Source of the DNA: Haliotis rufescens
Lineage: Eukaryota
Assembly (NCBI RefSeq): GCF_023055435.1
Contig: NW_025963891.1
Span: 15,252,001 to 15,316,000, forward strand
DNA length: 64,000 bases
Reading direction: 5' to 3'
Made by a program: the position numbers and the translations under genes. The notes below the pieces were generated by a model. It did no database searches and was not told the DNA's origin. It saw nothing but the letters and a program-made list of their open reading frames with translations. Positions 3,485-61,392 of this stretch are shown in pieces. Every line of letters begins with the position of its first letter. Positions within the stretch are counted from its first letter, which is position 1.

Positions 3485-10595
<7,111 letters not shown>

Positions 10596-12290
10596 TGAAG
10601 CGGCTGACGACATCGTCAGTCCCAGGGTGCTGCATGGGGGAAATCTCAGCTTTGTAGTCAGCTTTCATGTACTAACCTCGTATTGAAGTAGATTCAACTA
10701 TACCCAACAAATCCATGCATACCAAAAATTGTTTAATTCCAGATAATCAACAAGTAAATGTGAAACAAGTGAACATTTTTCTTCTTTCATATTGTCATTT
10801 CAATGACAAGTTCAGCATTAAAGGGAGATAACTCATGTAATTGATTTTGATGAAGTTCTGTGTTGGGTAATTTGAATCATTTGGTTTTAGATGCCAGGGT
10901 ATGCAGCATCTCCTTCAATACATATGCATACAAATATATCTCTGTCTGGTGTATTGTAGTATAATGTAGCATGCATGACAGTCCACCAGATAACTGTAGT
11001 ATTGTAGCTTTCATGGTGGTCCACCAGACTTTTGTAGCTGTACATCTCGTGCATGTCAGTGTTTGTTAGTGAAGGGTTCAAGAAGTAGATCAGTCTTGTT
11101 AATAAGCCCTAGCAATGGTTGGTAAGTCAGGATAGCACTACAATTAGCTGCTTTCCTGTTTTTGCAACGATCAGTGGTGTTCAAACTATAGAAGAATTAA
11201 CCCCCTGAACATTTGCACATTGAATTCTATTTTGTGTAACTATTATTTATTGTTGTTAACAATAGTGGTGAGTTATGAAAGATAACTGAAAGGTCACTGA
11301 AGATCATATATTGATATCGTAAAGAAACAATGGATTTGTCAACATGGATCTATGGCTTTAGTTACGTCTTTCCTGTGTATGATTAATACATCTGTATAAA
11401 GTTGATTTGAATTACCGATATTGTGGTTAATATTGTGAATTATGATTTCAGGAGGAATCACTTGTTAACAATACCGTTTCAGTAAGTCTCCCATGCAGTG
11501 ACATTTGTTTAACACTTTAGTTTTGGGCAGTCGACGAAATAATAGAGTAGATTTGATTTCTTTAACACCTTTGTGTACAGCAGGCATCCAGAATAACATG
11601 GCTGCATGTTGAGTTTTCTCCCTGCTCCCTCCACCATCTTCTCTCCTTGCTCTTGAGAAACTGGCACCTAGTTTCAGAGTAGTAGGGATTATCATTGCCA
11701 GTGAAAACAAGAAGTTGTATCATGACACACAGATGAAATAACTTTTTATTGTAATACCTGATAAAGTTTGACATGAAAAGTAAGCTTGCAGTTGGTCATG
11801 TGACCTTTACAGAGTAAGAAAATGACTTAAATTTATGCATTAGTATCTTCTGCCTATAAAAATAGTAACATTTCAAACACTTTTCGTCCAACTGAAATGA
11901 TTAAGCAATGACTGAGTAAGCTTGCCCCTCTAACTATATATAGAAACATTAAAACCGTTGTCAGTGACTATCCAGACTTTTTGATCTGTGGATGTACTTG
12001 GGTAATATTTTACATCTTTCATCAAGCATACATCTAGAACTTTTACTGTGATATTTCTGTTTACCTCAGTACAGCATGATACTGGGTATATGTAGCGGTT
12101 TCATACTGTCATCTTTTGTGTGTGTGCTTATTAATATCTTTGTATATATGTGTACACTAAAATATTTTGTGTGTTGTGTAAATATTTTCTTGTTTTCTCT
12201 CTTTTGTACCCCTTTTGTTTCTGTCTTATCTTGATCAAGCCATGTGAAGGTATTTATATTAAATACATATTTATATTTGGATTGGTAAAC

Positions 12291-12546
12291 ACCCGTGAAG
12301 ATCCGGGATAGAATAGGTCTTCATCAACCCATGCTTGTCGTAAGAGGCGACTAACCATGCTAACGGGATCGATTGGTCAGGCTTGCTGACTTTGTTGATG
12401 CATGTCATCATATCCCAGTTGCATGGATTGATGCTCATGCAATCAATCACTGGATTGTTTGGTCTGGACTCGATTATTTACAGACTGCCGTCATATAGCT
12501 GGAATATTGCTGAGTGCGGCGTAAAACAACAAACAAACAAACAAAA
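12291..12546 (+). mobile_element. SINE family A (non-tRNA structured head, (AAAC)n tail)
   Basis: Starts ACCCGTGAAGATCCGGG.TAGAATAGGTCTTCA and ends GCTGGAATATTGCTGAGTGCGGCGTAAAACAACAAACAAAC. At least 13 copies or fragments in the window. Confidence 0.85.
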
Positions 12547-12967
12547 TGGATGGCTAAACACTGATTCTTTGTGAGACATCAGTGCTTGAATTGGCCAGCT
12601 AGGGAAACATGTCTTTTAATGGCACTGGAGTCCAAGGTGAGTCTTTGTGCTGCAATTTTCTGTGAAGAGTTATCTGCCTTTGCCACCAGGATCTGCTGGT
12701 TTGGGGTTTGGATCCCAGGTTCACCCTGATTATGAACCTTGGTTTGTCAGCACCTTACCTATGCCCATGTTTTTCACCCAATTGGTAAGTGGCACCGGCA
12801 TGTGAGTTTACTCTCACGTGGAGCCGACATGCCAAGATACGAATGAAACAGTTTTAGAATAATGTTGAAACTCATTACTAGAAAATTGACTCTCTGTCAG
12901 CTGTAGAAAATGATCCCGTGGTTTTGGTTCTTTGGTAATGTTGAACTGTGTCTTTTTATCAACCCTA

Positions 12968-13204
12968 CCCTTGAAGATAGGGATTGAATAGGTCTTCATC
13001 AACCCATGTTTGGCATAAAAGGCGACTAACGGGATTGGCTGGTCAGACTCACTGACTTGGTAGATGCTTATCATTGTATCCCAATGACGTAGATCGATGC
13101 TCATGATGTCAATCACTGGATTGTCTGACCTAGACTTGATTGTTTACAGACCACAATCATATAGCTGGAATATTGCTGAGTGCAGTGTTAAACAATAACA
13201 ACAA
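12968..13204 (+). mobile_element. SINE family A copy
   Basis: Homologous to 12291-12546. Confidence 0.8.
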
Positions 13205-17083: not shown

Positions 17084-18068
17084 AGTTTTTTGGCTTAAAT
17101 ATTGTAATTTTAAATAACACCATCATGCCTTTGTTTTGAATTTATCTTTTTTTAATTCTTTGGTATAAGTTGTTTGTCATTATTCAATTTCTATCTTTAA
17201 TATATCATTAGCATGTTGTGCAGAGATTGAATCAGTATCAGCATTATTCAAGGACAGTGATCATGACACTAATGTGAGAATTGAGTATATATGATGTACG
17301 TGTTACTTGGTAAAAAAAATACAAAAGAACATAGAAAGTAGTAGATAGTAGCAGAGTTTAATCAGCCAGTTGGAATTGTCATTTGTGCTTTTAGACATGA
17401 CAAGTGCAATATACTTCACTGCCAGTTAACTGAAGTGGTAAGGTAAAGGCATGAAATGTGTTTCCTAGAGAGCATTATCCTGATTTGTCATGTTTGATCT
17501 TAGGGATTGCAACTCCATGTCCTGCAGAATGTTATTTCCATTTCTTTGAAGGAGTTGGTGTAATGATACTAACAATTCTACATACACTGTTACCCCTCGG
17601 GTTGCTGGTTTTGTTTGTCGCGTGGATAATTCATTTTCAATTCCTTCTTACAGAACTCATCTTTTGTCCCTCTCAAATTCATCTATTATGTTGAAAAGTT
17701 GATTGTAAAAAAAAATCTTACGAAGTCGTTTCTCAGGTTTATTTTGCACAAAGTTAGCATAACAATCTTTCTAAGTTAAGAATGAAAGTGATATGGATGC
17801 TTATGAAGTACCAGCGTATTCAAATTCAACGTCAGGGGATTCTAGTCACTAGAACAGGTGAATCTCTTCAACCCTTCAACTTACTGGCCTCCACGTGTTT
17901 ATGTACAAAGTACCTCTGGAAGGTACATTGTTACGATTGTTATGGTTAAATATCCTGAAATAAACATTTTTGGAATAACTACAATTTTGTCATTTGTGAA
18001 AATGAGTGTTTTCTATGTAAAGCAATCAGCAAATTGACTTGCCGCATCTTCTCTTTACCTGTGTCTGG

Positions 18069-18372
18069 ACCTGTGAAGATCCGGGGTAGAATAGGTCTTG
18101 AGCAACCCATGCTTGCCGTAGGAGGCGACTAACGGGAACGGGTGGTCAGGCTCATTGACTTGGTCATCATATTCCAACAGGGGCGGTTGGGTAGCCTAGT
18201 GGTTAAAGCGTTCGCTCGTCACGCCGAAAACCCTGGTTCGAATCCCGACATGGGTAATGGTGAAGCCCATTTCTGGTGTCCCCCGCCGTGATATTGCTAA
18301 AAGTGGCGTAAAATCATGCTCGCTCACTCACTCACATTCCATATTGCTGAGTGCAGCGTTAAACAACAAACA
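18069..18372 (+). mobile_element. SINE family A copy interrupted by a tRNA-derived SINE family B copy (18180-18335)
   Basis: A head at 18069-18175 and A tail at 18336-18372. The insert has A-box GGTAGCCTAGTGGTTAAAGCG, B-box GGTTCGAATCCC and a CACT tail. Confidence 0.8.
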
Positions 18373-19040
18373 GGTTGATTTTGTGTTTGAAAGCTTGAGT
18401 GATTGTGTCCTTGTTAACACTACACGGTTGTTCAGGTTAAGGAGAATATTGTTTTTCCCACACTGCAAGAACCAGGTAGCACTAGCATTTACCAAGTACA
18501 AGCAAAACAGTGAATGCCTATTAACAACTAGAGCAGCTGCAATCCATTTTTCTCCATAGATAATGGAAAGTACCTGGGAAACTGCTGCATCCACAAAATT
18601 CAACAACAGCTGTATGCATTCATAAACAGGAAATTGTCCACCTTGATATTCCAATTTTCAAAATGATCATTTGATAATATTGCAGCCAGCCTTACTTGCT
18701 GTACATACATGACAGATATAGTTACTGTTTCAACCCTATTTATGCTTTAACTAAAGACATGCATTGTTTCTTAATTACAGATTTTATCAAACTCAATTCA
18801 CTATCTGCCACACATTGCATCATATATGACAAATAACAAAAAGAAATAATCATGATCAGTAAAAAAGAAAGATCACATCTATCCGCTATTTCCATACAAG
18901 CAGATAGCCTCAACTGCATACAACAACCAGCTAAACAAGGACATTAACAACTACAGGTTGCATTACAAATTGTACATTAGTTTTCAGAGGTCTGGTTGTT
19001 GTACTTTTCTATTGTGTTGAGTCATGTACATAATTCTGCA

Positions 19041-19283
19041 ACCCTGTGAAGATCCGGGGTAGAATAGGTCTTCAACAACCCATACTTGCAGTAAAAGGTG
19101 ACAATGCTTGTCGTAAGAGGCGACTAACGGGATCGGGTGATCAGGCTCGCTGACTTGGTTGATACATGTCATTGTATCCCAATTGCGTGGATTGATACTC
19201 ATGGTGTCAAACTCGATTATTTACACAGACCGCCATCATATAGCTGGAATAGCTGGAGTGCAGCATTAAACAACAAACAAACA
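19041..19283 (+). mobile_element. SINE family A copy
   Basis: Homologous head and tail, with an internal deletion. Confidence 0.8.
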
Positions 19284-23100: not shown

Positions 23101-26100
23101 TAGACGACTGGGCCACCCGTGCCCCCATACATCACAGGAACTACAGTCAGTGTCAAGTATTTTATGACTGGCTGGTTGCGACAACTGGTACCTGATCATT
23201 CTAGAACATCAGTCCAACCAACTCATTGTTCACCAAAACTAGATGTACACATTACTTATAGACATCAACTGGTCAATCCTTCCGGGGCAGTGGGGTAGCC
23301 TGGTGGTTAAGGTGTTCGCTCATCATGCCGAAGGCCTGTGTTTGATTTCCCACATGGGTACAATGTGTGAAGCCAATTTCTGGTGCCCAACGCCGTGATA
23401 TTGCTGGAATATTGCTAAAAGCGGCGTAAAACCTTACCCCACTCACTCCTCCCACAGCTTCAGTGGTAGCAATGAGGGTCCAAAAGGTCTTGAGGTATTT
23501 ACCAATAACAACGTGGAAAAAAGAACCCTTTAAATTCCGCCCTAATTTCGAACACTAAAAATGGATAAAAACCGAAAACACTTCATTTAAGTATAAGTAA
23601 CCACGGTAGGATTGCATCCCCATACTGACCTTCTCCTCCCGGCTAACACCAGCCCCTGCTCCAGCACCAGCATCGCGAGGCTGCATCTCAAACACTGTAC
23701 GGAACAGATTCTCCGATGTCGTTGTCAAGAACTCAATCTCAGCATTGGGGTGGAGGCCGTACAGATAGGGGCTCTCTGGTGGCAGCACCTCATCAATGTA
23801 GGCGTGGTAACCCTTATAGTCGGAGTTGGATGGCACAGGAAAGCCTGGAGCCAGGTACAACTCTCCGTCAAGCTGGAAGAGACAAGACATGTTCACAGTC
23901 ACCATTCACACATATAACATTTACAGCTCCACCGTGGTTGTCAACCATACAAGAAAGCAATACATTTTTTTTAAGCGGCCATTTTATATGTTGTAAATTA
24001 CATCAGATACTTTCTAGGAATTGTAGTGTTAATCCCGTGAGAACACTTGAGAAAATGGTAAACCCGTGAAGATCTGGGTAAGAACAGGTCTTCAACAACC
24101 CCTGCTTGCCGTAAAAGGTTACTATGCTAGTCATAAGTGGCGACTAACGGGATCGGGTGGTCAGGCTCGCTGACTTGGTTGATGCATGTCATAGGTCCCA
24201 TTATCAGCTTCACTTCAAGTGAAACTACAGACAAAAGTGCACATTTCCAAAAGTGTCCACTATAATTGATAACAGAAGGAAATATCCCAGTATCAGATAT
24301 CAAGTAGTATATCTAAATGAATGACACTCTGCTTACCATCTCCGCATGCATGTACACCTCCAGGTACGTCTTACACAAGCGTCGGTCCCAGTCGTCTGTG
24401 ATGTGTCCTCCGTACATAATCTCTCCGAACAGGTACCTCAGATCTTCCCAAGGAACCTTGGCATTAGCCTCCAGATAGTTGTACAACACATTGACACTGA
24501 TGGTCAGATCACCAGTGTTGTAGGGGTACACCCTGTTCCATCCCTGGGGGCCGAACTTACGCCTCTCACACACTACTGCATGGAAATAGCAGAGAGAGAA
24601 GAGGATACTCTTAAACTCGGTCTCTCTGGCGCACATCTCTAGGGTATCCTGAAAATAGGTTGAAAGTTTTTCAAGACTTGCAGGTTACCTAACCTATTCC
24701 AAAGGTTAGTAAAACAAATACAAAAAGTTTTATTTATTTATGGCAGTATCAATTGATTTCTTGTTTCACTGATTTTTAATATGAGTTCGGAGGCAAAATA
24801 ATTAAAAATAAAAAAGATGTAAGGGTTGATTCAAGGTTTATTCCCCTCAAAAAGAAGAAAAAAGAAAACATTGTATGATATGCCTTTAAAAACAGAACTA
24901 AAAGACATGGAGAAGATAATAAACGTCAAGATTCAAAAAAGATTCCAGGCTCACCTGGTTAAAGTTGTCAAGAGCTTTGTGCAGATTGGCAAACATGCCA
25001 GTAGGGGGCTCATTTGTAATCTTGATAGCTGTCTCCAGGATTCCCTGAGGTATGATGTGTGACTCTGGGGTGCCGGAAGGCTCTGCACTGATGAAGACTC
25101 TGTATTCGGGACTGCTCTCCACTGAGTACTGCTCAAGCTTCTTCTCCAGACTAGGCAGCCATTTTGCCACAAGATGGACGTTCTGTAAAATGCAATCAAT
25201 CTCTGATGACACTATACAAGTAATCATTAATCTCCTTTGCTTAATAAACTTTGCTTTAATAATTATTAAAATAATTCGATTTCTTATGAGCTTTCTATAC
25301 ATTTCGAATGTAAATTACTTTACCTGCAACACGACCCAATGACCTTCTTTAGCTGCAAGATCCATAGCCTGCTCTGCAACAACCTCCTGACCTTGACCCA
25401 GGGAGATGTTATGGAAGTTATTATGATCCTCGCTCATGTTCATCTTTTTGCCGAGAGCTTCCACATCCTTCAGAGGATCCACACCAGGGGACAGGATGAA
25501 GAAGATGGGAGTACCAGGACCTGATTCCTCAAATGACTTGGCAAACTCCACACTACGACCCTCAGTGTACTTGGAGCCAAGTTTCTCCTCAATGAAGTTC
25601 CTTGATAAGATAGAAATGTTATTGCCTTAAATGCTAGTATAAGTGCTCTAGTTAATTTACATCAGGATATACAAGGGATGCAACATTTATCCTGAACCAT
25701 TAGAGGTTCCCTGCCTGAGGTTGAGGGTGGGTCTTGAAATAGCCACAAGGGGAAACAGTCAGCCAAACCAAGTCAACATAAGGATAGCCAAGCATAATGA
25801 AAAGAGTGAGTGAGAGAGTTTGGTTTTACGCCGCTTTTAGCAATATTCCAGCAATATCATGGCGGGGGACATCAGAAATTCAGCTTCACACATTGTACAC
25901 AGCGAACGCTTTAACCACTAGGCTACCCGACCGCCCTGATAATGAAAAGAAATCATATGCAAGCAAGACTACATACCTGACAGCATAGGACATTCTGTCT
26001 GGTCGCAGAGCTCTCATCATACACAGCTTCTGGAGAGATGTTTTGTTCTTCCACTCCTGGGGGAATTTCTCTTTCTCAGGACACTCACTCTCTACAAACT

Positions 26101-35100: not shown

Positions 35101-38100
35101 AAAAAATATCCATAATCATAAATCTCCTTTTGTGTTCATTCCCACAAGGGATTAAAAAATGCATCAATATAATAACCTCAAGCCATCAGCCTTATAGCCT
35201 TTGTCAAGCACAAGAGTGTGCCTTATAAAGGCCAGGAGGCCGAAGGCTTAAGATTATATGCATAATCATAAATCAATGATAAACAACAGGAAATGTTGAG
35301 AAAAAACATAAATAAAATGCTCATTGTAACAGCCATTCTAACACCAACCTGAAAAGAGCCTTGAGGTTCTCAGGCAGCTCTGTTCTTCCAGCATAACCAG
35401 GGTTCATTGTGATGAAGATTCCAACAGTGGGTTTCATCTTGATGGTCTCGCCAAGGAAGTTGAAGATCTTCTTCTTGTCACGGATAGCATCCTGAATACA
35501 TTTGACCTGCACAGCCACCACAGATAACACCTCTACGGCAATACGGTTGAATTCATCAAAACAACCCCAGGAGCCAGACTGTGCCAGACCCTTGTAGATG
35601 TTACCGATAGACTGAAATGAAAAGCAGATTTGGGTTTAACACCAGCATCATTAGCATTTTAGTTAAAGTGGTAGGAATCTTAAAGTGATGCCAGTTGTAA
35701 AGATGTACTATTAATATGAAAGCAAGAAGCAATGTCATGGTGCTGACAAAGGGGGTATAATAATCCAGATGAATCTGAAGTTTTTTTGTCATGTTTTGTT
35801 TGTTGTTTAACACCGAACTCAGCAATATTCCAGCTCTATGATGGCGGTCTGTAAATAATCAAGCCTGAACAAGACAATCCAGTGACTGACGTCATGAGCA
35901 TCGATCTCGCAATTAGGATACGATGACATGCATCTACCAAGTCAGCGAGCCTGACTACCCGATCCCGTTAGTTGCCCAGCAGTATGTCGCAGTACCTCCA
36001 TGATAAACCTTCATATCAATATCAGTAGTTATTTTGCTCTTAAATATGTTTAAACAATAGTCATCAGGAGATGACAAAAAAAACTGCCCACACAATAACA
36101 AAAGGCACCACTTCAGCCACTGGTTAATACATGTACAAAGTTTGGATGAAAAATCTTTTACGGTTTTCAAGTAATGCAGTTTACTATGCTCCAGAAATGA
36201 AATACAGACGGACAGACAGACCAAATGATGACTATATCCCTGCATTATACGCCAGGGGATAAAAAGGAAGTGTAACTTTAATGTGGCACTGACCTTGTAG
36301 TCCATCTGTTCAGAGCAGTTGAACACATACACCATGATACCGAGAGCCCGGCCCAGATCCTTAGTGGTTTCCGTCTTGCCTGTTCCAGCTGGGCCGGCCG
36401 GAGCACCGCTCATGATCAAGTGGAGAGACTGTGTCAGTGTGATGTAGCATCTGAAATGTCAAGACTCCTCAATATACTCTCTATTCCATTTGTAAACATC
36501 AGTTTTCTGATAAAGAACAAGTCTTAAGCAATCAACTCAAATGCTTGTAACAAAATAACTATCACTGAGTCTAATATGACTTTTGTATTCACAAATGAAT
36601 AATTCTGACATCAAATGTACTTTCATTATCTTAATGTTTATTGCAATCTGATATTTAGAAACTCAGCCAAATGCCAATACTTTAGGTATCCCCATGTTAT
36701 GGGTTTTTGGACGCTTAAGAAATATTCGTAGCTTTCTCGCTAATCACAAGAACAACTGTAAAACATCTCACTCAGTTGTAAAAGATGACTTTAGCTTAAA
36801 AACAGGTCATCTGAGAATTTACAATATCCGTGTGACACCACACCCCGTGTTAAGAGCGTGTAATCGCGATAAACATGGCCGTCTGAAAACGTATGCTCCA
36901 GTCCAGTCAGAATGTTATTTATGAAGATCGAGCTACTTTGAGAAATGTGCATTTACATCTTTTGGAATTATCAAACACATAGTACCCCAAAACTAAGCAT
37001 TGCCCACAAAACACTTAATTTTCAGTGAAATAACATACAATTTACCATTAGCAAAGGAACCTAAGCATGTTCCACATAGTACCAGTCTCTGCCAAAAACT
37101 TTTAAGTCCATTAGGGCAAACTTGGCTCAAAGGCTAAACAAAATAATAGTCTTGGTACTCAGGCACTGCCCACATCATCATAAAGTTCATTGCACGTTTC
37201 GGGTTTTTTACCATTTTCAGTTTTTTTTGTGCATTGTGTTTAAGTTTTAGGATTTATAAAAAAAAATTGAAAATGGAAATAGAAACAATACGTGTGGCAG
37301 ACTTTATGATGATGCGGTTGGTGCCTGAGAACCAAGACTATTACATTTTTTAGCCGTAGCATCATGTTCTTTTATGTTATGGACTATTTTAGCTTAGCTT
37401 TCCTGACCGAACTGAATGTTACAAGACCCAAGCTTCGGACTATGACATAATGATAGTCACAGTACAAATACTGCATTGTGGAGGAGAGCCAACAGGCTTA
37501 CATACACTGAGGACATCTGTAGTCACTACTAAAGTTTCCCATGCTGTTACCTGTCAGTCAGTGGTGTAATGACAAGACGAGCAGTGTTGCCGAGATACTC
37601 ATGAGAGTAACGGAACATGGCGTCACAGATATTGGCAAAGCAGTCTCTCTCGTTGTCATCCCATCTGTGTCGGAGCTGAGACAGCCAGGTGAAGGCCTGG
37701 GAACTATCCACTTTCTGTGTGATGAGTTTGGTCACAACATCTCGGGCGTGTACATCAATAGTACAGATAGTCATGATCTTCTGTCTGTCGCCCTTCGACA
37801 GATCTCCAAGCAGCATGGTGATTAAGGCATTCAGTTGGTTTACCTAAACATCAAAACATCACCTGAAACATGTCTTTCTTGAAATCTTCATTAACAGATC
37901 TCACTACCTTGATGAATATCCTTTCTTTGGAAAAAGTGAGTATGGCTTTACGCCGCTTTTAGCAATATTCCAGCAATATCATGGCGGGGTCACCAGAAAT
38001 GGGCTTCACACATTGTACCCATGTCGGGAATCGAACCCGGGTCTTCGGCGTGACAAGCGATCGCTTTAACCAATAGGCTACCCAACTGCCCTCTTTGGAA

Positions 38101-41100
38101 AGAAAGACAGTTAGCAATGACACAAAACATATGATGAAATACATCTACAGATCAACTATTGTAACTCATAGATCTACGATAATCCAAATACCCAAGACAG
38201 TTTGCATCATGGGAGTGTTTACATCATCCTGTAAAAGAGATTCTACCAAAATGAACTGTTTTATTAAAATGCTACAAACCTGTTTCTTGCTGTAGTCCTT
38301 CAATGCATTCTCAAAGCCCTCTTCCAGACGACCGAAAGCGATGTTAACTTCAGTCGTCCACCAGATCTGTGTCCCACACAGAGCAACCTGGGCAGGGTAG
38401 TCAAACAGCCACTGGTCACGAGGCTTCTCTTCATATCCACTCACGGCTTCCGTTAGCTCATGACGCACAGTGCTGCATTGGGAGTCCAATAATCTATTCA
38501 ACCAGACTTCAACCTAAAATAGGAATTATTGTGCGTTAGATATTCATGGAACTATGAACAGCTTGTCAAAACAGATACACTCCAATTGTAAAACACGCCA
38601 GTCGTTACAATTCTTTCAATGCAGAGAAAACTGGATATGGTCACTTGGAATTATTTATCCAAATAGTGAACCACGGTTAAGGAGACTCATGTTACTAGGG
38701 AACAAACTAAATATGGGCATGTCTTAAGAAAGCCTGCTGCTCTTGGTTGACTGAAAACTTGGCAGGCAATCGACTAACCTGTCCTGAAAGGTCACACTGC
38801 TTGTCAAGATCAACATATTCTCCATCTTTGCTGTACATTCCATTTGCTGTCTTGAGTTCTACTCCATTGGAGTCCATTTCAAACTTGAGTTGAGCCATAC
38901 TGTCAAACAGTTTGGTCAAGTGACGTGACACCTGCAATGAATATTATTACATTAGACACAAAACTAGACAAGTGCTTTATGTTACTGATAATGTCACAAT
39001 ACAATATTTGTTTCTTACATTGTTTAACATCACACCCAGCAAAATTCAAGTACTGTGTAAGATGACAGCCTGTAACCAATTCAGTCTGGACAATACAAAC
39101 CAGCGATTGATAGTATGAGCAACATCCCACACATGACGACACACTGTCAACCAAGTAATCAAGCCTGACCATTTAGTTGTGTCTTATGACAAGCATATGT
39201 CAGTCAAGCCAGTCTAACCCAAGTCTCCACAGGAAGCACAATGAGACACTATATCTGATTAAAATCCTCATGCAAATGACCAGTGAAGATCTGGGTTAGA
39301 ATAGGTCTTCAGCAACCCATCCTTGTCATAAAAGGCAGCTACACTTGTTGTAAGAGGCAACTAAAGGGATCGGGTGGTCAGGCTCGCTGACTTGGTTGAT
39401 GCATTTCATTGTATCCCAATTGCATGGATCAATGCTCATGTCAATCACTGGATTGTCTGGTCCAGACTCGATTATTTATAGATTTATTTATAGATTATTT
39501 ATATTATTTACAGGCTGCCATCATATAGCTGAAATATTGCGGAGCAAACAAACAAACTCATCATGCAAACACTGATTAAGTCTTTGAAAGGCATTTAGAA
39601 GTGATAAACAAAGAAAATCTATGGATGTCAACTTGTCAAACACAGCGTTTCAGAGTATATACTTACTCCTTCATCAGGTGAGCATTGGACAGCAGATCTA
39701 GTATTGATGCATGTAAAGAGCAGGCTTAATAGTGAAGGATGGTTTGATGTTCTCTAAGTAATCACTATCACTGAAGACCTACCACTGGTGGGTTATTTCC
39801 ATTGGACAAAATATCCAGCAAGTCTGCTGATGACACAAAGTAGAATCTTGGGAAGGCCAGACGCTTTGTCTCCAAGTATTCTGCGAGTGCCTTCTCACAA
39901 ATCGACAGTGAACTTTGCAGTGCTTCTAATCGTTCATACAACTTAGGCTGGTTGGTAGACTCCACAACATTCTTACTCTTCTCAAATTCACCCACTAATT
40001 CCTGAAAATAACAAACCACACATGAATCAATGTTGTAGAAGAAGTCTCGAGGACTTACAAAAGTTAAAAACACAACAACCAAATACTGTCAATATCATAT
40101 GTCAGATCTCAGTGAGGGAGTTACTGTACATCGTAGAATAAACACCTGCCTTGAATAAACACCGGGTCAAACAACCTCTGCCTTGAATAAATGTAGGGTA
40201 AAACTACCCTCTGCCTTGAATAAATGTAGGGTAAAACTTATGATTGAATCCATATCAGCGTCCACCCTCTCAGCCCCATTACCTTGAAGTCAGAGTCAAT
40301 GTTGTCAAATCTCTTGGAATCTTCTGGCAGCTGGTTCCGAATGTCCTCGGAGCCAATGAAGATACTCTCCAGATGAGACCAGGTCCTCTGTACCTCCATA
40401 TAGATGGTGATCACCTGATCAGCTGTAGACAACTTCTTCTGCCAGCCAGACACCTCAGTTAGGAAGTGAGCGATGTACTTCGACGTCATCATGTTTTGTA
40501 GTTGTACCTGGAAAATGACAATTGAAATAGGAGACATTGTGTATGAACACGTACTGTAAATCTTGAAATTAATGCATCCCCAAATTTATACGACTGCTGA
40601 CCCCTAGCCAAAAATGCGACACAATATCAATGCGACTCCCCCTTCTGTCTCTATTCAAGTAGGTATTTCCGCTGTCCTAAGTGTGCAGTGAGGCAGTCTT
40701 ATTGTTGATAGTCATTTTTGCGACATAAATGCGAAGTTTCATTAATGCGAGCGAAAACCACTCTCATTTTTGGCATTATCTACGCTCACGTTAATTTCAA
40801 GATTTACGGTAACTAAAATAGTGTTCTATAAATCCAGTGATACTGTAACAATGCTATTGCTCTTTATTTTCAAATTGCTGTTAATAGAAACTGACCTGGT
40901 TATCTTCCAGTGTCTCTATGAGTTCCTCACTGGTCTTGATCATCGTCATGGAAGTGCGGGGGTGTTTCTCATGCTCAAACTCCATGTTGGACCATGTGAC
41001 GTCCAGCTCCTTGAGCACCTTCTCCATACTCATCTCCTTCACAGCCTTGTCCACGATGTTGCGGACCTCCTCCTCATAGTTGTGCAAGTTGAGGGAGAGG

Positions 41101-44100
41101 AGATCAGCCAGGGTTGTGCTTTCATCCATCATGAAGCGCACCTTCAGGAGAGATGGATCAATTAAAATCAGGATGGATCCCAGTATGCCTGATCTCTAGC
41201 CACCCTTCCCAGCAAGTTGAAAAAAAGTGAGTGAGTGAGTTGGGTTTAACGCCGCTTTTAACAGTATTCCAGTTATATCACGGCGTGTCAGCTTAATGTG
41301 GGAGGAAAGCCCAAATTGAAGCAGGTCTCAGATGTTTACCCCTTCGGTGAAACCAACGAGCAAGGGTATGGTGCTGACAAACCTAGAAACATTTGAACCC
41401 ACAATCATAGATTTCTGACGTGCCCAAGGGATGCAACTCTGCACAGCGAATAGTTGAAAAAAGGATTGATTTTCCTTTATATATTGATTAACAATTATGC
41501 TAAAAGTATCAGTAGCATCATCCTTAAAAAATGTAAAACAATATCTTGTTTCAAAAAGCATGAACATTTGATCAAAAACACGAATTTTGTTCAATTATTA
41601 CCCCGGACAATGATTAAACAGTATGAAACTTGCCTTTGTGGCTGCCATAAGCTGTTGCCAATGTCTCTCTCTGATGGCTGGGTTCTGCAACTCACTGACA
41701 GCTCGGAGTGATGTAAGCATGTTCTTCACCTGGTCCTCCACACCAACGTAGGCGTCCCAGGCTCGCATCTCCTTGTCCAAGGTACGGATATCCTTGGCAA
41801 ACTTTTTGCAGTCCATGTCCATCTGTTCCACATTGATTTCCTTCCAGGGCGTTGTCTTCCAGTCATCTATACTGCTGCGCACAATGGTGATGTAGTCCCA
41901 TAAGACCTTGAGAAGCTTGATCTCCTTACGACACTGTTTCAGCTGCTTGAAGTCCGGAACATTCACCTCAAACAGACCAGCACTGTCCAGAAGAACTGCC
42001 ATTTCTCGCTCCATGGAAAGGATTTCTTCATTATTCTAAAAACCAAATATTCCTTTCATGAGCTTCTTCGGGAAAATAATAAAGCATACTAGGTCAACAT
42101 TCATGAATGTGTGTGTGTATGTGGCTGCTTGTACTAGAGATTATAACATGAACTCCCAGTCAAATATCGAATGCGTCATATGACATTGCAAGTATACATC
42201 ATTTTAGAGACACAAGTTGAACTCTGATTAGCAAGGAAACAAACCTTGTCAAGCAGATCATAGGGCCTTTCACAGTCGTATCTGAATGGTTTGATGTTCC
42301 TGAACCTTTCTCTGAATTTGTGTTGGTTGACATCGAAGGAGGCGCTCTTCTTTCGAATGTTGGCAACCTCATTAGCCTGCAGTGGTGCAACTGTCTGTTT
42401 GATTGTGATGCCAATCTTCTTGGTGTTGTTCCACTGCTCCGGGAGTTCCTGACAATACAAAACATGAAAAGCTTTAGCCATTTTTTCAGAACCAATACAC
42501 CAAATCTTGGAAACAAATTCTCAAATATTCTATGCGAAAACGATTTGGAAAAATGTGTCGTTCCGTTTCGTCAAGGAAAACAATTGTTGATGCAGCGTTA
42601 GAAACTGGCACTAGTCCTATAGTCCTTGCCAAACTGCCCAATAGTAAAGGTATCATAAGGACTAGTAGAAATTTTTAAGGGGTTTTGCTATATAATATCA
42701 TTACAAGGTCTCGTGGACTATAAATGTAAGTTTCTACAACTGTTGATCGCTTCAAAACATACTCCGAATGAACGGTTTATTAAAATAAATGCGTTTAGAA
42801 TAATCCTCCAACCTGAAGCTGGACATGAACTTCCTCCGGCATCTCCTGTTCGTAGGTTTTCAACAACTCAATGGTGTGTTTGAGAGGCTCAAACATCTCG
42901 TCTGTGGAACTCTGCCTCTCTCGCACAGCAAACAGATGACCCATGACATTCACCAGCCCGTTATAGTCTCCCTCTTCAACGGGTGAGTTCAGACCAGTAT
43001 CGGTCACCTTGATGAAGTCAGACAACTCGTTCAAGCTGAAGAAAAGAAATATAAAATGTAGGCAATATTTTGTTTGACATGATTTGCAAGATCCTGAATG
43101 ATTTGTATAGTTCAGATGCCCAATCAACATAATATAATTGTAAGAGTATTAATCTTTGCCAAAACCTTTGGAGTCGACCAGCCCGAGCTTGACATCCTTT
43201 TCAATACATTTCAGTGTCATAATTTGAACTAATATTAGCTGAGCATACCAGACTGAAGGGAATTGTACCAGACAAGGGCTTCATACCGTTTCTTTGTTTG
43301 TTGTTTAACACCACACTCAGCAATATTACAGCTATATGACGGCGGTCTGTAAACAATTGAGTCTGGACCAGACAATCCAGTGATTGACATCATGAGCATC
43401 GATCCACGCAGTTGGGATACAATGACATCCTCCAACCAAGTCAGCGAGCCTGACCACCCGATCCTGTCAGTCGCCCCTTACGACAAGCATAGACGCCTTT
43501 TACGGCAAGCATGGGTTGCTGAAGACCTATTCTACTCCGGATTTTCACGGGCTTCATACTAGTTGCTAAAGTCACAGGCTGGTGTTATGCATAGCAGAAC
43601 GATGGAACTCAATAAATGATTCTGGAAAATGAGAGAGTCGAGTTTCCCCACTTGGAGCAATATTCCAGCCATATTATGATGGTGTGCACTGAGAACGGGT
43701 TTCACACATTGCCCCACAAGGAGAATCAAAGTCCATGACCAAATGCTCTACACTGTTAGTTATCCCACCACCCTCTGAAACATACCTGTTGGTAACATGG
43801 TCAATGAGATGCTGTTTGAACATGAAGCTCCATCTCTTGATGATGTTGAGCAGGGCTTGTTTGAAGGGTTTGGCATCAACTCTGAACCAACTCTCAAATA
43901 TTGTCATGCCCCCAATATGCTCAGCCTCTTCATAGATCTTTTCATATGTGTCGATCTACAAACAAATTCATTCTCATCAAAATACATGAAACTCATTCAT
44001 CACAAAACTGTCACATATGCATAGTTCATCTGATGTCACTTAACAGATGTGCTTAAAACCAGACCATCAAAAATACTTTAAAGTCCATGGCAGAGATTAT

Positions 44101-55835: not shown

Positions 55836-58800
55836 ATGGCGGAAAAGCATGCCTTTCGTCTGCTGTTGACTTGGAAAAATAGACATTATAACGCAGTTTC
55901 AAGGTTCATGGTTGCTTTTATGTTAAAGTTGAACGTAGAGTCAAGCGATGATGATTCTGATTCTAAAAACAAGTAATAAATTTTGCCACCGTTATTAGGT
56001 CGCTCATATTTCTTGCATTAACGTTTGATTTGTGGGCGAACATTTCCTAAGACTTGAAAACTGTCCAATATATTATAGGGAAATGGTACAAATGTTAATC
56101 AAACATGGGTCTATGATCTAGTCCTCCCTGGCAGTCTCAAACACTGGAAACATTTTGATGGAGATTAGTCAAAGCATTTTACATAAAGTACAATTCTAAC
56201 AGCTGCTATTTTGTTCAAGTTGTCACCTTGACCTAGATGCGAAGTGTGTAGATAAATATTTCTCTATCAATATGTGAAAAAATGTTGTAGGTCATAGTAG
56301 ACTACTTTATTCCAGATTTATGTTTTATGGTTGCTTTAGGGATGTCACGATTCACCAGTACACAGATATATTGATAATCATGATAATAGTCTCAAACAAA
56401 CAATACAAAATACAATATCGTTCCAACCGTGGACCTATTCATTCATATTTAACTTACTTGGGGTGCACATCTGAGGTATAGGGATATAGGGAATAGGGAT
56501 TTCGCTATTGTATTTAATAATAGAAACTACTTATGTTGCCACGCCAGTTTTATCTGGAGTAAAATTACTGATTGAAAGCACTTAAGCAGGAATTTTTATT
56601 TCAAAATTGAGACCAGATATTCAGAAAGTTTTGAAACTGTTTAATATTGTTTATGTCCTATGAAATATAAATATTTAGGCAAAATTACCACGAACAACAA
56701 ACAAAGTTTGCACTGCAACAGCTTTATGAAGTGGTTATCTGAATATGAACACAGTCATTTTGCTATTTTCTTTATTCTAAAGCCCCAATATTATCTACAA
56801 AATGCAGGGTTATGAATTGTTTTGGTTAGAAAATGTTGCTTGGTTTTCTATTTTTAGATATCTTAAAGGTATTCAAATGTATTTATTCAGGTTTGCAACA
56901 ACATATCAGTGCAACAATAGCCATACAGGAGTCAGTGACCCTTTACAACACACAGCACGAGCAACTCACAGACAGTGTTCTACAAGACCACATGTGTTTG
57001 ACTATTTTGGGTGGATGGGCAAGTTCACCCCTTGTTACAGGGTGAAAGGCGATCAGGTTTTGGTCATCACTGAACCAACACAGTTCTATGAAGTTCTGAA
57101 GGTGAATCTTTCACTATTTGTGTTTCTGGAGGGTATGTTGCAAATGTATTATCGCTGCATATTTCTGATGGTTATTTAGAAATATTTTCTGAAGTTTCCA
57201 TGAGAAATTATATTCCCACAAAAAGACACTATGTAAAAGCCAGAGCAATTACAAATTCATGTAATGATCATGACTCTATATGACCAACTGCTACACTATG
57301 TGTTTCTGTATGTTTTGTTTGTTTGTTGTTTAATGCTGCACTCAGGAATATACCAGCTATATGACGGCAGTCAGTAAATAATCGCGTCTGGACCAGACAA
57401 TACAGTGATTGACATCATGAGCATCGATCCATGCAATTGTGTTACGATGACATGCATCAACCAAGTCCACGAACCTGACCACCCTTTAGTCACCTTTTAC
57501 AGCAAGCATGGGTTGCTAAAGACCTATTCTACCCCAGATCTTCACTGATCTGTTCCTGTATGAGGCAGAGTAGGTACTGCAAACAGGCTGGTTACATTGT
57601 TAGTTTATTTTGTGTTAAATTAATTGTTTGATAATCATTACTTTGAAGTTGACGGATGACAAAGTAGACACAATTTATGGATGATAACTTCTTTATTTAC
57701 TGTAAAGGCGATATTTCGGTATAGATCCTTATTCCATTGTCATGCAAAGAAGACACAATTTATGGATAACAACTTCTTTCATACTGTGAAGGCAACGTTT
57801 AGGTATAGATCCTTATACCGTTGTCAAGCTTGAAGAAGTTGTTTTCCATAAATTGTGTCTACTTAGTCATCTGTCGACTTCTAACTAATGCCTATCAAAC
57901 AATCCTTGTACAGTCAAGTCTCGTTAATACAAAACTTGTTAATCCAACTGTCAGCTTTATCCGACACAAATGATGGGAACCAATCAAATCAGTGCTATTT
58001 AGACCCGTTAGTCCGACAGTCTCCCATTCCGACTCCAACACACCTAATTTGCAATGAATTGCTGAAATCACTCATTAATCAGTCTTGTTGTGACTAAGTG
58101 ATCAGCGTACTCCGTGGTCATCTGCCCGCGAGTACACAGTATCAGTATTTTGAATCAGCCATGCAGTCTGTAACAGTAATTTTGTGTTAAACTTTACAGG
58201 TTGCATGACTAGAAAACATATTCCACTAACAAACACAACAATATAAAATTATAAATATTTCCTATTTTTATTACAACATGTTTGAATCGTTCTGTATCAT
58301 ATAGTTGTCCAATCTTCGATCACAAATGTTGATACTACCTAATTTCGTTTATCCGACATACTCGTTAATCAGACATAATCATATGCAACCAACAATGTCG
58401 GATTAACGGGACTTGACTGTATAAGGATCTCTACCGAAATGTCGCCTTTACAGTACACAAAGAAGTTGTTATCCATAAATTATCTCTACTTTGTCATCCG
58501 TCGTGTCTAAGTAATGCCTCTCAAACAACTTAAATAATTCATTATCAAGCAAGGCTGAAAAATGAACATGGTACAGAATACATATAGTAGGTGGAAGATT
58601 TACAGTAACAACAATTGCCAACAAGAGAGAGATTAACATAAGTAGGTTAAATAATGACAAGAGAAGGATAATACTGTAACAACATGATGGACAGAGATCA
58701 CATAATGAGGCAGACAATTAAACAGGATTAAGGGTACATAGGTGGGGTGAATATTGCTTAATGAGTTCATAGTAGGCGGATGGGATGAAATAGCCTTGAT

Positions 58801-61392
58801 CTCTGTTGATTGATGGCTTGTGACAACAAATGTGGTCTGCTTCTGTTAGTTTCTTTTAATGAAGTCATGGAGGTTGTTGGAGAGGATTTGGATGTTTTCC
58901 GTTGATATGTGATTGGGGCAGTTGCTGATATCGTTCAATATGGCTGATTTACTGTTGATGGGGCAGTATGTTTCACTGACGTAGGATTGTCCACAGTTAC
59001 AGTCTCATGATTATTTTTCCCCAATTATTGTTCAAGACATACACATATTACACCTCAGTACATTATTTGTTCAGCCAAAACAGGTAGAAATTGTGTAGCA
59101 TACTTCATGTCCATGGCAAAACCATAATGGATATTAGATTTATTAATTCTAATTAATGTTGTGTGGAGACAAATGTTTTTGTGAGCTATTTGACAATCAT
59201 AATGTTCAGGATAAAGCTATGAATATATACATTTATTATTTCCCCTATCAAAGAAAAAAGACAATCACATTTTCCATCCTCTCTAATGAAGAAGTTCCAG
59301 TGTCCAGTTTGTTCACATGCTGCTGAAACTGCATCCACGGATAAATGGAGAATGCAAATGAGGAGAATATTTGGCTTGTGGGTTCTCTGCTAGGATTCCA
59401 GGCAAGCAGAGGTCTTTAGTGCCCCATGCTTGTCAGAAGAACCCAAAAGTACCCCAATATTGGGGACTGTTGCCCATCCTATCAACTACTGGTTGACTGG
59501 TCCAGAAACATTGTCTGCTGGCTGCCATGATGTGGCTGTACATAATGTTGCTATCTGGCATACAACAACATTCACTCCTGTACCTACTTGCCTGCCCATT
59601 TAGTTCATGCTAGATGTTGTTTTTTCCAGATCAAAGCAAGGAAAGCCAGAAAAAGGATAACAATAGCATCACTCTATCTTGGAACTGGTCAGCTAGAACA
59701 TGACCTTGTAAGTAGTTTTCATGAAAGTACAATAAGCACACAAATATCAGTAAGCTCCTCACAGCAATAGCCTGTTCACAGATCTCTCTATACTATCGCT
59801 GCCACTAAAGCTCCCCACTGTGATAGGCGGCCACAACCATGCTTGGGGTTACACTCACATCTGACAGACCATTCTGTTTATAAACAAGTAATGACTGCTG
59901 TGACGCCGAATACTCTTACCCCAGATTCTGTATTTTCTTTGTTTGTCAATTTGAATTTCTGTTTCATTACAACTATCATGTAATTGGAATAGTAAGAATG
60001 TAAAGGAGAATTTGGTTGATTTTCTGATCATCTGCAATCTCGAACCAATCTGATCAAACAAACAAATTCGTCTGGGAAATATGGTCAGTCATAAACCTTT
60101 TCAAAATTCACTATGATGGAGTTCCCAAAGACATAAACAAAAGTATAATCGTGACTACGTTTTGGGTTAGAGGGCAGATTCCAAGATTCTTGTAATGGCC
60201 GCACCCACACTGGTGGCATCAATGTTACTGAGAGTGTAACGAAGGTGTCACATGCTGAGAAGGAGCTTGAAATAACATGATTAAGGATAAATGTACTAAT
60301 ATGTGGTCAGCTAACTTGCATCTAGATTCAGATTCGTGAATATTTGTTTATTCACCTTACATGTCTTAACATCTGGGAATTGCTTACCAATCTTTGATCT
60401 ATCATCTTTAAATTGGTAAGTTTAAGTTTCACCTTGATGTCATCATGTGTTGTATGTTAGTCTGTCCATACGTAAACTTGACAATGTAACATCTTGAATG
60501 TCTTCTTCTTGTGATAAACATGAGTCATGCCTAAATCCTCGTCTCCAAAACCACTGGACATTTTGTTTTGTTTATTTGTCTTACAACCTTCTTTGACCCG
60601 TGAAGACCCGGGGTAGAATAGGTCTTCAGCAACCCATGCTTGCCGTAAAAGGCGACTATGCTTGTTGTAAAAGGTGACTAACGGGAATTGCGTGGATCGA
60701 TGCTCATGATGTCAATCACTGGATTGTCTGGTCCAGACTTGATTATTTTACAGACCGCCGTCATATAGCTGGAATATTGCTGAGTGCGGCGTCAAACAAC
60801 AAACAAACAAATACAACCTTCTTTGTTAAATATGGAATGATAAACTATGGTGCCAACTGCATAGTTGCGTCCCTTGGGCAAGTCAGAAACATTTGATCAT
60901 GGGTTCGAATCTCGGTTCACACCAATTATGTTTCTGACACGCTGTGATATACTGTTCAGAGCGGCGTTAAACCAAACTCACTAACTTAAGTAATATGAAT
61001 GAATCGGGTCATCTTTAACTTTCTTTGAGTGGTATATTGCCATGTACATGATGTATTACATTGAAAGGGAGTAATGTCAGAAGAGACTGCCAATGTTTCC
61101 AGGTTGGTTGTGTCAGAGAGGCATGTGAAAATGCCAGGAAAGATGGAAATTGTGACATGAAGGTGAACATACTGTTGGACTACACCCGAGGGTCCCGGGG
61201 GAAGACTGCCAGTTCGAGAACTATGTTACAGTCGCTTCTAAAAGACTTCCCTTCATGTATGGACGTATCGTTATACCACACTCCAGATCTGAGGGGCTTG
61301 CTGAAACGAGTAGTGCCAGAAAGATTTAACGAAACCATTGGATTGACCCACCTAAAAGTGTACCTGTTTGATGACAGTGTTATCATTAGCGG
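55836..61392 (+). CDS. PGS1: Mitochondrial CDP-diacylglycerol--glycerol-3-phosphate 3-phosphatidyltransferase (phosphatidylglycerophosphate synthase), first 4 exons
   Basis: Exons 55836-55903 (less certain), 56891-57101, 59630-59707 and 61103-61392 in consistent phase. Motifs ARKRITIASLYLGTGQLE, ILLDYTRGSRG, VSLYHTPDLRGLLK and RFNETIGLTHLKVYLFDDSVIISG (HKD motif). The gene continues beyond the window. Confidence 0.9.
57315..57548 (-). mobile_element. SINE family A copy
   Basis: Homology to family A. Confidence 0.8.
57645..58505. mobile_element. Nested DNA-transposon remnants: Tigger-like MITE (57909-58401) amid an older inverted-repeat element
   Basis: TACAGTCAAGTCTCGTTAAT / ATTAACGGGACTTGACTGTA TIRs. 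Outer arms GGATGACAAAGTAGA.A.AATTTATGGAT at ~57654 are mirrored at ~58400-58500 and ~57830-57880. Confidence 0.7.
60596..60811 (+). mobile_element. SINE family A copy with a clear 14-bp TSD
   Basis: TACAACCTTCTTTG at 60582-60595 and 60812-60825 defines the 5' end as (G)ACCCGTG. Confidence 0.9.

Follow-up and report, generated by a model that had tools for sequence, protein, structure and literature searches.

A pseudoknotted RNA module at the 5' ends of Haliotis SINEs and I-group LINEs, and in viral genomes, is a candidate exoribonuclease-resistant RNA

The head of an abundant SINE in Haliotis rufescens has a predicted pseudoknotted fold that recurs in I-group LINEs and in viruses, and we propose, at chances we consider evenly balanced, that it is a new fold of exoribonuclease-resistant RNA (xrRNA) defining the 5' ends of retroelements. 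In the proposed mechanism, the first ~70 nt of the SINE would fold as an H-type pseudoknot plus a hairpin and act as an xrRNA: the 5'-to-3' exonuclease XRN1 or XRN2 would halt at the base of the first helix, a SINE lying inside a longer host RNA would be trimmed to its exact 5' end without a promoter or ribozyme of its own, and a partner I-group LINE would reverse-transcribe the trimmed RNA via a shared tail. We infer the three-dimensional fold, the nuclease block and read-through transcription as the source of the RNA. The SINE family and the sequence of its head are already known; the RNA fold, its viral occurrences and the ribozyme that lies upstream of it in LINEs appear to be new, and the module is most likely an xrRNA variant. 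For these three we found no description in open-access papers.

The element came to attention in a 64,000-nt stretch of H. rufescens DNA (the window), for which a preliminary description had listed seven SINE copies with a common, sharp start. Copy alignment and target-site duplications (TSDs) confirm both the SINE and its sharp 5' boundary: all seven copies are present, with starts agreeing to within ~2 nt. On the plus strand, single-hairpin copies occupy 12290..12541 (~250 bp) and 18068..18164, the latter interrupted downstream by a tRNA-headed SINE, and two-hairpin copies occupy 19041..19283, 24062..24192 (3'-truncated) and 39278..39544. The copy listed at 43551 exists but lies on the minus strand (43289..43551, two-hairpin, with TSD). 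Two single-hairpin copies were absent from that list, one at 12967..13198 on the plus strand and one with a TSD at 57314..57549 on the minus strand. The copy that served as reference, here the 60596 copy, is an LP-type SINE of the two-hairpin subfamily at 60595..60811 (plus strand), with a body deletion of ~45 bp and a short A/C-rich tandem tail. Its 14-bp TSD proved exact, as had been claimed: the left copy at 60582..60595 ends on the element's first base, and the right copy lies at 60812..60825. In the window, a model built later from non-viral sequences detects 12 copies of the head (E<1e-4). The SINE tail (60760..60811) is common to the tRNA-headed SINE of the window and resembles the 3' ends of I-group LINEs, a likeness judged by eye and not reported by blastn.

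Across the genome the same boundary recurs. Of 77 copies that retain the head, 55 begin with G and 60 have A as their second base; the base preceding the start is random (24/23/17/13). Half of the 62 tailed copies (31) are flanked by TSDs of 8-19 bp, and for 17 of them the left duplication ends immediately 5' of the first G. Genome-wide there are 7,587 exact matches to a 28-mer from the head (against none for a control), and the 29 heads found in 264 kb of contiguous sequence extrapolate to ~100,000 copies in the 1.33-Gb genome, if density is even. Rfam and ARAGORN, the kind of check that the preliminary description had itself called for, give no tRNA or Rfam match for the head, and neither finds the small-RNA-derived head with A and B boxes typical of tRNA, 5S and 7SL Pol III SINEs. 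Another SINE of the window has a tRNA head at 38023-38081 that Rfam detects weakly (E 0.11).

At the sequence level, the family and its head have been described before: the head corresponds to the 'LP' domain of Matetovici et al. 2016, who reported LP-SINEs in Haliotis, Littorina and oysters (PMC4758252). The LP head is ~70 bp long, is common to the 5' domains of Nimb-17_LMi, I-3_DR and RTE-9_CPB, and was proposed as a putative LINE promoter, with the L1Tc promoter/ribozyme cited as an analogy only (PMC4758252). Like the SINE studied here, the Haliotis elements Hdi_LP and Hmi_LP have a non-tRNA head, TSDs, a tandem-repeat tail and a head shared with I-group LINE 5' ends; single-hairpin copies here measure ~250 bp and the Haliotis LP consensus 255 bp (PMC4758252, supplement table 2). 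Our SINE is presumably Hdi_LP itself, judging from shared head, tail, TSDs and size rather than from consensus sequence. The head also aligns by eye with the scallop 'Nimb-17 homology' segment (PMC4758252, supplement Fig. S2), whose inner stem differs in sequence yet is complementary. The available portions of that report differ from the present account in proposing a promoter, without RNA structure, viral occurrence or an upstream HDV-like ribozyme, and they leave open how LP-SINEs are transcribed.

What fold does the head adopt? From 157 parsed instances we derive a stem S1, a loop 1 that is usually a single U, a 7-bp stem S2, an A-rich loop 3 and a stem S3 that encloses an internal loop and a 4-bp hairpin, S4, with a 7-nt loop. 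In S1 the 5' end of the element pairs with the strand immediately 3' of the 5' strand of S2, the predicted geometry of a classical H-type pseudoknot, with a hairpin 3' of it. In the 60596 copy, S1 is a 5-bp helix between 60596..60600 (core pairs 60597-60600) and 60609..60613, the element starting 1 nt earlier; loop 1 is position 60601; the S2 strands are 60602..60608, which the 3' strand of S1 abuts, and 60621..60627; and loop 3 (60613..60620) carries a conserved A-rich hexamer anchored to the 3' strand of S2. S3 joins 60633..60637 to 60681..60685, the latter a strand that had earlier been paired with the 5' end. The first S4 unit (60642..60656) has a 4-bp stem with one mismatch and a conserved, purine-rich 7-nt loop, and the copy holds this hairpin twice via a 22-nt tandem duplication (60658..60679) whose second unit, 60664-60678, is CpG-decayed.

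Comparative evidence supports this topology stem by stem. The inner stem that the preliminary description had drawn (60602-608/60621-627, our S2) is real and covaries strongly: in the training alignment 5 of the 7 pairs show two-sided changes, and in a model-fitted alignment all 7 do. The latter, made mostly of sequences outside the training set, leans towards the model, as fitted alignments do; 91% of its cells are paired, and its score is equalled by none of 500 shuffles. Partner permutation was run on 26 representatives that are partly related, with kinship ignored, several mis-registered rows kept and parsing based on S2 alone; it supports both S1 (z -4.5, p<1e-4) and, with a smaller effect, S3 (z -2.0, p 0.027). 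As had been thought, the head is a conserved RNA with a predicted pseudoknot, but not with the topology first drawn. The outer stem 60597-601/60681-685 is non-specific across families in the same test (z +1.5, p 0.94); it is the nested minimum-energy fold of the 60596 copy and a real alternative in the young SINE subfamily only. The pseudoknot placed at 60611-614/60632-635 likewise lacks specificity (z -0.9, p 0.18), a three-way-junction reading is unsupported by the permutation of the same 26 representatives, and the hairpin exists but is better described as a 4-bp stem with a 7-nt loop. S3 carries one mismatch in the young subfamily to which the 60596 copy belongs, is mismatch-free in the older subfamily and in LINE copies, and is weak in two of six viral copies (L058, L055) as well as in the young subfamily. 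Nested folding z-scores are modest (-2.9 to +0.4), values expected of a pseudoknot.

The module tolerates large changes in its interior. The span from the 3' strand of S1 to the 3' strand of S2 is 12 nt in the 60596 copy and reaches 149 nt in other families; in metagenome SINE families, insertions stretch loop 3 to 73 and 149 nt and leave S2 and the start point in place. Heads of these families that had been thought decayed are intact heads with long loop-3 insertions.

The resemblance to the hepatitis delta virus (HDV) ribozyme noted in the preliminary description, with strands ordered P2-P3-L3-P3'-P1.1-P4-J4/2-P2' and P1 missing, is a different matter. Two facts speak for an HDV-like ribozyme that has degenerated or been rearranged: in the young subfamily the 5' and 3' strands can pair, and HDV-like ribozymes do head LINEs of the same genome. 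Yet an HDV descriptor matches none of 78 SINE copies taken with 100 nt of flank, nor anything in the window or at six viral loci, and the P2 and P1.1 pairings find no support in the permutation test. Among the 78 copies the descriptor finds no 7-bp P1 that starts at the cleavage site and pairs behind P3; in place of a 3-bp P3 with a pyrimidine-rich L3 of 7-8 nt there is a stem of 7 bp with a loop of 12-149 nt that is not pyrimidine-rich; no P2 closes the fold (z +1.5); and the candidate catalytic C of the CUAA motif, which should be unpaired in J4/2, forms the closing base pair of S4, paired in 19 of 19 rows. The HDV reading of the SINE head is therefore largely refuted, and we regard it as very improbable. 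The head is a module adjoining an HDV-like ribozyme, not the ribozyme itself, the real one being a separate unit upstream.

That unit became apparent in the partner LINEs, for which a protein search gave 113 scored matches; 20 loci were examined, chosen to span ORF2 lengths. The suggestion that the head derives from a LINE was borne out: 18 of these 20 I-group loci carry the module upstream of ORF1, and both ORF2s tested (n=2) contain endonuclease, reverse transcriptase and RNase H domains. Among 17 loci with a TSD, 16 start 55-58 nt upstream of the module. The 57-nt leader of one such LINE (L264:1508-1564) parses as a canonical minimal HDV-like ribozyme that begins at the first base of the element, has P1, P2, P3, L3, P1.1 and the J4/2 C in the canonical order and abuts S1 at its 3' end. 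Against Rfam RF02682 it scores E 0.0032 and 27.5 bits, below the gathering score of 44; the HDV descriptor is positive in four of four HDV-led loci, two of them picking a more distant P2 partner. On this sequence evidence the leader is a true, separate HDV-like ribozyme, predicted to be self-cleaving, and it stands at the 5' end of most intact LINEs examined. Genome-wide, 1,031 exact junctions keep the HDV-like ribozyme before the module and 3 start otherwise, a retention of over 99% in this family, module-initial copies being given as ~0.5% and the pattern for ribozyme-less junctions catching ~56% of random flanks. The seventeenth TSD locus belongs to a sister LINE family without the ribozyme (36 exact matches genome-wide), in which 22 of 25 copies, some of them duplicates, begin with a T that lies one base before S1. 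A target-site preference of the LINEs was considered and rejected, the apparent signal being their own 57-nt leader. Six LINE clades with 5' ribozymes have been catalogued, and in the available text Nimb/I is not one of them (PMC5786205). The HDV-like ribozymes at R2, RTE, Ingi and L1Tc 5' ends share the purpose proposed here, promoterless release (PMC5786205); the SINE head differs in having another fold, in being the next module downstream and in persisting without the ribozyme. Release of the SINE from host transcripts, as the preliminary description had it, is probably right, but not by the self-cutting HDV-type route.

Initiation, self-cleavage and nuclease arrest are three processes that yield sharp 5' ends. 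Elements always start one base before S1, but with a base that depends on the family (G, A, G, G and T); three metagenome families have A in 24 of 33, G in 13 of 14 and G in 10 of 11 copies. A family-specific base at a fixed position argues against an initiator, a cap-derived G or the G1 of an HDV ribozyme, and loop-3 insertions of up to 149 nt that leave the start unmoved are unlike a core promoter of fixed spacing. These data bear on one of the two main alternatives, in which an internal Pol II promoter, the published LP hypothesis, sets the 5' end while the RNA fold serves cap-independent translation or ribosome binding, acting as a viral enhancer like a 3' cap-independent translation element (3' CITE), in ORF1 translation from uncapped LINE RNA and in Alu-like ribosome targeting of the SINE. 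We consider it unlikely. A purine is the first base in four of the five tallied families, as a promoter would favour; against this stand the T of the ribozyme-less LINE, the C-rich start of scallop copies (PMC4758252, supplement), internal spacing that varies by >130 nt, and the rarity of module-initial copies in the HDV-led family, where they should abound. Junction, spacing and first-base data are thus indirect evidence against the promoter activity proposed for the LP head (PMC4758252). A translational role by itself makes no sharp 5' end.

Why would a LINE keep a ribozyme directly in front of the module? XRN1 requires a 5'-monophosphate and does not attack the 5'-OH product of a ribozyme, and for a nuclease-arresting module the HDV-like ribozyme would be retained upstream because its product escapes XRN1. 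Such retention would be unexpected for a module that cuts or initiates at its own start. It therefore also weighs on the second main alternative, which we hold to be equally unlikely: that the module is itself a self-cleaving ribozyme of a new, non-HDV class, cutting one nucleotide before S1, its active site formed as the hairpin loop docks onto the pseudoknot. Self-cleavage would account for a start sharp to the nucleotide with any first base, and for the conservation of bases left unpaired in the hairpin and in loops 1 and 3; a shared ribozyme domain at the 5' end has a precedent in L1Tc (noted in PMC4758252). But it would remove the upstream HDV-like ribozyme, unless the paired P2 blocks cleavage, and Rfam offers no ribozyme that fits the module in the window or in five viral contigs. 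Fits to twister, pistol, hatchet and hammerhead ribozymes, made by eye against their consensus, were rejected. The xrRNA reading has a difficulty of its own here: behind an HDV-like ribozyme a nuclease block seems redundant, which points to a second or different function, such as cap-independent translation.

The module extends beyond retroelements. A viral scan for the hairpin alone returned nine stretches, of which seven have the full upstream pseudoknot that the pattern did not demand; these are six distinct sequences, scoring 38.7-71.3 bits against a model built from 19 non-viral sequences. Five of the contigs that bear them are RNA-virus-like, with RdRp or capsid families, and in all five the module is in sense, close to where the contig ends and 5-100 nt past the last stop codon. 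In one contig (L053), whose long ORF has no Pfam match, a second, tandem copy is truncated by the end of the contig. The sixth viral module, from a large DNA virus contig, is intergenic and has an ORF ~150 nt downstream. Looser viral patterns gave no further true match, phage blastn gave none, and Rfam reports nothing at the module in the five contigs; L189 is a chance match, and L057/L061 have the hairpin without the full module. In metagenomes, a pattern scan returned at least 122 stretches; hairpin invariance in such database matches is forced by the search patterns, from which the other three helices are absent. Across 596 Gb of prokaryotic genomes only seven matches were found, in bins of symbionts, next to simple repeats or at the ends of contigs, one of them being the 5' part of a LINE; they are presumably eukaryotic contamination, and this near absence fits a eukaryotic partner enzyme.

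These positions discriminate further. A DNA promoter cannot be what RNA viruses conserve, and a module that cut itself past the last stop codon would presumably sever the 3' end of an RNA-virus genome; nonetheless, UTRs of linear RNA viruses hold ribozymes, mostly 5' and exceptionally 3' (PMC13725137). The translational part of the promoter alternative would account for a module behind an HDV-like ribozyme, whose product is uncapped, and for the one module ~150 nt before an ORF. 3' CITEs, too, often lie directly past the last stop codon of uncapped viruses. BTE, PTE, TED and other 3' CITEs resemble the module in their place at the start of the 3' UTR and in a conserved hairpin loop, but we know of no 3' CITE class that has such an H-type pseudoknot or defines retroelement 5' ends. 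For nuclease arrest, both the viral 3' position and the tandem copy fit: xrRNAs often occur in series in 3' UTRs (PMC8374639), and class 3 xrRNAs stop Xrn1 precisely at the base of P1 (PMC12397905).

How close is the head to known xrRNAs? As in these, at least one conserved pseudoknot, supported by permutation and covariation, lies at the 5' boundary. The three-way junction and two pseudoknots of class 1 and class 2 are not found in the head, nor is an Rfam match to them. The nearer likeness is to class 3 (ST9a, SCNMV and PLRV, in Tombusviridae and Solemoviridae), in which, going by the available portions of two reports (PMC12397905, PMC8374639), a 5' hairpin loop pairs downstream as in the head, the pseudoknot measures 3-9 bp (7 bp for S2), the location is a 3' UTR or intergenic, and the start falls at the base of the first helix. 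Class 3 differs in having P1 and P2, a J1/2 bulge that docks on a T-loop and a triple-forming linker, whereas in the head S1 closes an 8-nt loop without P2 or T-loop (PMC12397905). Further differences are the head's extra downstream hairpin with a conserved loop, its residence in cellular retroelements, the absence of an Rfam match and a resistance that is putative. Against the xrRNA reading, then, the topology matches no described class, and a simple H-type pseudoknot does not necessarily close into a ring. The S4 hairpin is about as long as S1 and S2 together, and its conserved loop could reach and brace the 5' end.

In its widest form, the proposal is that of an unrecognised class of exonuclease-blocking RNA common to RNA viruses, a large DNA virus and the LINEs and SINEs of many animals, which we advance tentatively, at a little under even chances. 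If true, retrotransposons would gain a third route to a 5' end beside promoters and ribozymes, with a host decay enzyme carving read-through transcripts; with its ~100,000 copies here, the module would be the first xrRNA to play a part in cellular genomes, and one interchangeable with an HDV-like ribozyme in sister LINE families. Vicens and Kieft note that xrRNAs have been characterised in viruses only, and ask whether eukaryotic genomes hold them (PMC8374639, section 7). That question and the transcription of LP-SINEs could both be addressed with one 70-nt RNA and one enzyme, and the sister LINE families with and without the upstream ribozyme are a natural experiment within one genome. Under either main alternative, the module remains a structured RNA without an Rfam family or a description that we could find.

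Some minor observations concern transcripts. In Logan contigs of another organism, loose ends coincide with the same SINE boundary; contig ends cannot show RNA starts. In miRNA-seq data the SINE receives only 5-48 reads, among which, few as they are, no pile-up is seen at the module start, and the LINE 5' region receives 1-129 reads, mainly of one antisense species of ~30 nt.

Intact I-group LINEs of the abalone genome, putatively of the Nimb clade, begin with a predicted canonical HDV-like ribozyme, a minimal form of 57 nt in which P4 is nearly absent (L264:1508-1564, one of the I-group loci L258-L276). Across these loci, a predicted HDV-like leader lies ahead of 21 of the 22 instances of the module, the ~70-nt predicted H-type pseudoknot and hairpin that also heads the SINE, and the number of I-group LINE copies with such a predicted leader is at least 1,031. 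Endonuclease, RT and RNase H domains are present in the two ORF2s tested from these LINEs. One miRNA-seq run contained 85 antisense small-RNA reads, piRNA-like in size and with a single start, that cover the pseudoknot in the LINE module (L264:1571-1601).

The LINE subfamilies in L258-L276 have a near-identical 5′ end despite differing in ORF2 length (1228-1257 aa) and in their 3′ UTRs, and this pattern of sequence similarity suggests 5′ UTR swapping between them; many of the copies are inserted inside other LINE copies. The 7-nt loop of the module's hairpin occurs in four variants among the main copies that follow the HDV-like ribozyme, and one variant predominates in the ribozyme-less sister LINEs (L281-L305). 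Judging from these sequences, constraint on the loop is possibly relaxed behind the ribozyme.

The module is also found in viral and metagenome contigs. A DNA virus contig of 212,482 bp (L055), which we take to be iridovirus-like, holds a full module at 6952-7026, located between two co-directional ORFs, ~120 nt past one and ~150 nt ahead of the other, the latter encoding a kinase-like protein of 1046 aa. One metagenome contig carries two full modules in direct succession (L092:1370-1516), resembling the tandem copies in another viral contig, L053. In three further sequences (L075, L109 and L116), the module lies immediately 5′ of an apparent tRNA-derived head, the same order as in scallop MESC SINEs; ARAGORN made no tRNA call at these three heads. 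SINE or LINE sequence of eukaryotic appearance, in one case the 5′ portion of an I-group LINE, occurs in GTDB genomes (L191-L197) and probably represents host contamination or chimeric contig ends. One of these sequences, L196, is a scaffold of a named bacterial symbiont.

Within the window, a dynein heavy chain gene has exons on the minus strand at 20187-51123, and its introns hold several SINE copies in either orientation. A second, tRNA-headed SINE family (~18185-18380 and 38023-38081) has the same tail type as the module-headed SINE. There are also two tandem arrays: 47 copies of a 45-bp unit with 95% matches (6001-8133), in which several frames are open and the Pfam matches look spurious, and 4.1 copies of a 51-bp unit (4188-4397), which is weakly similar to the head module.
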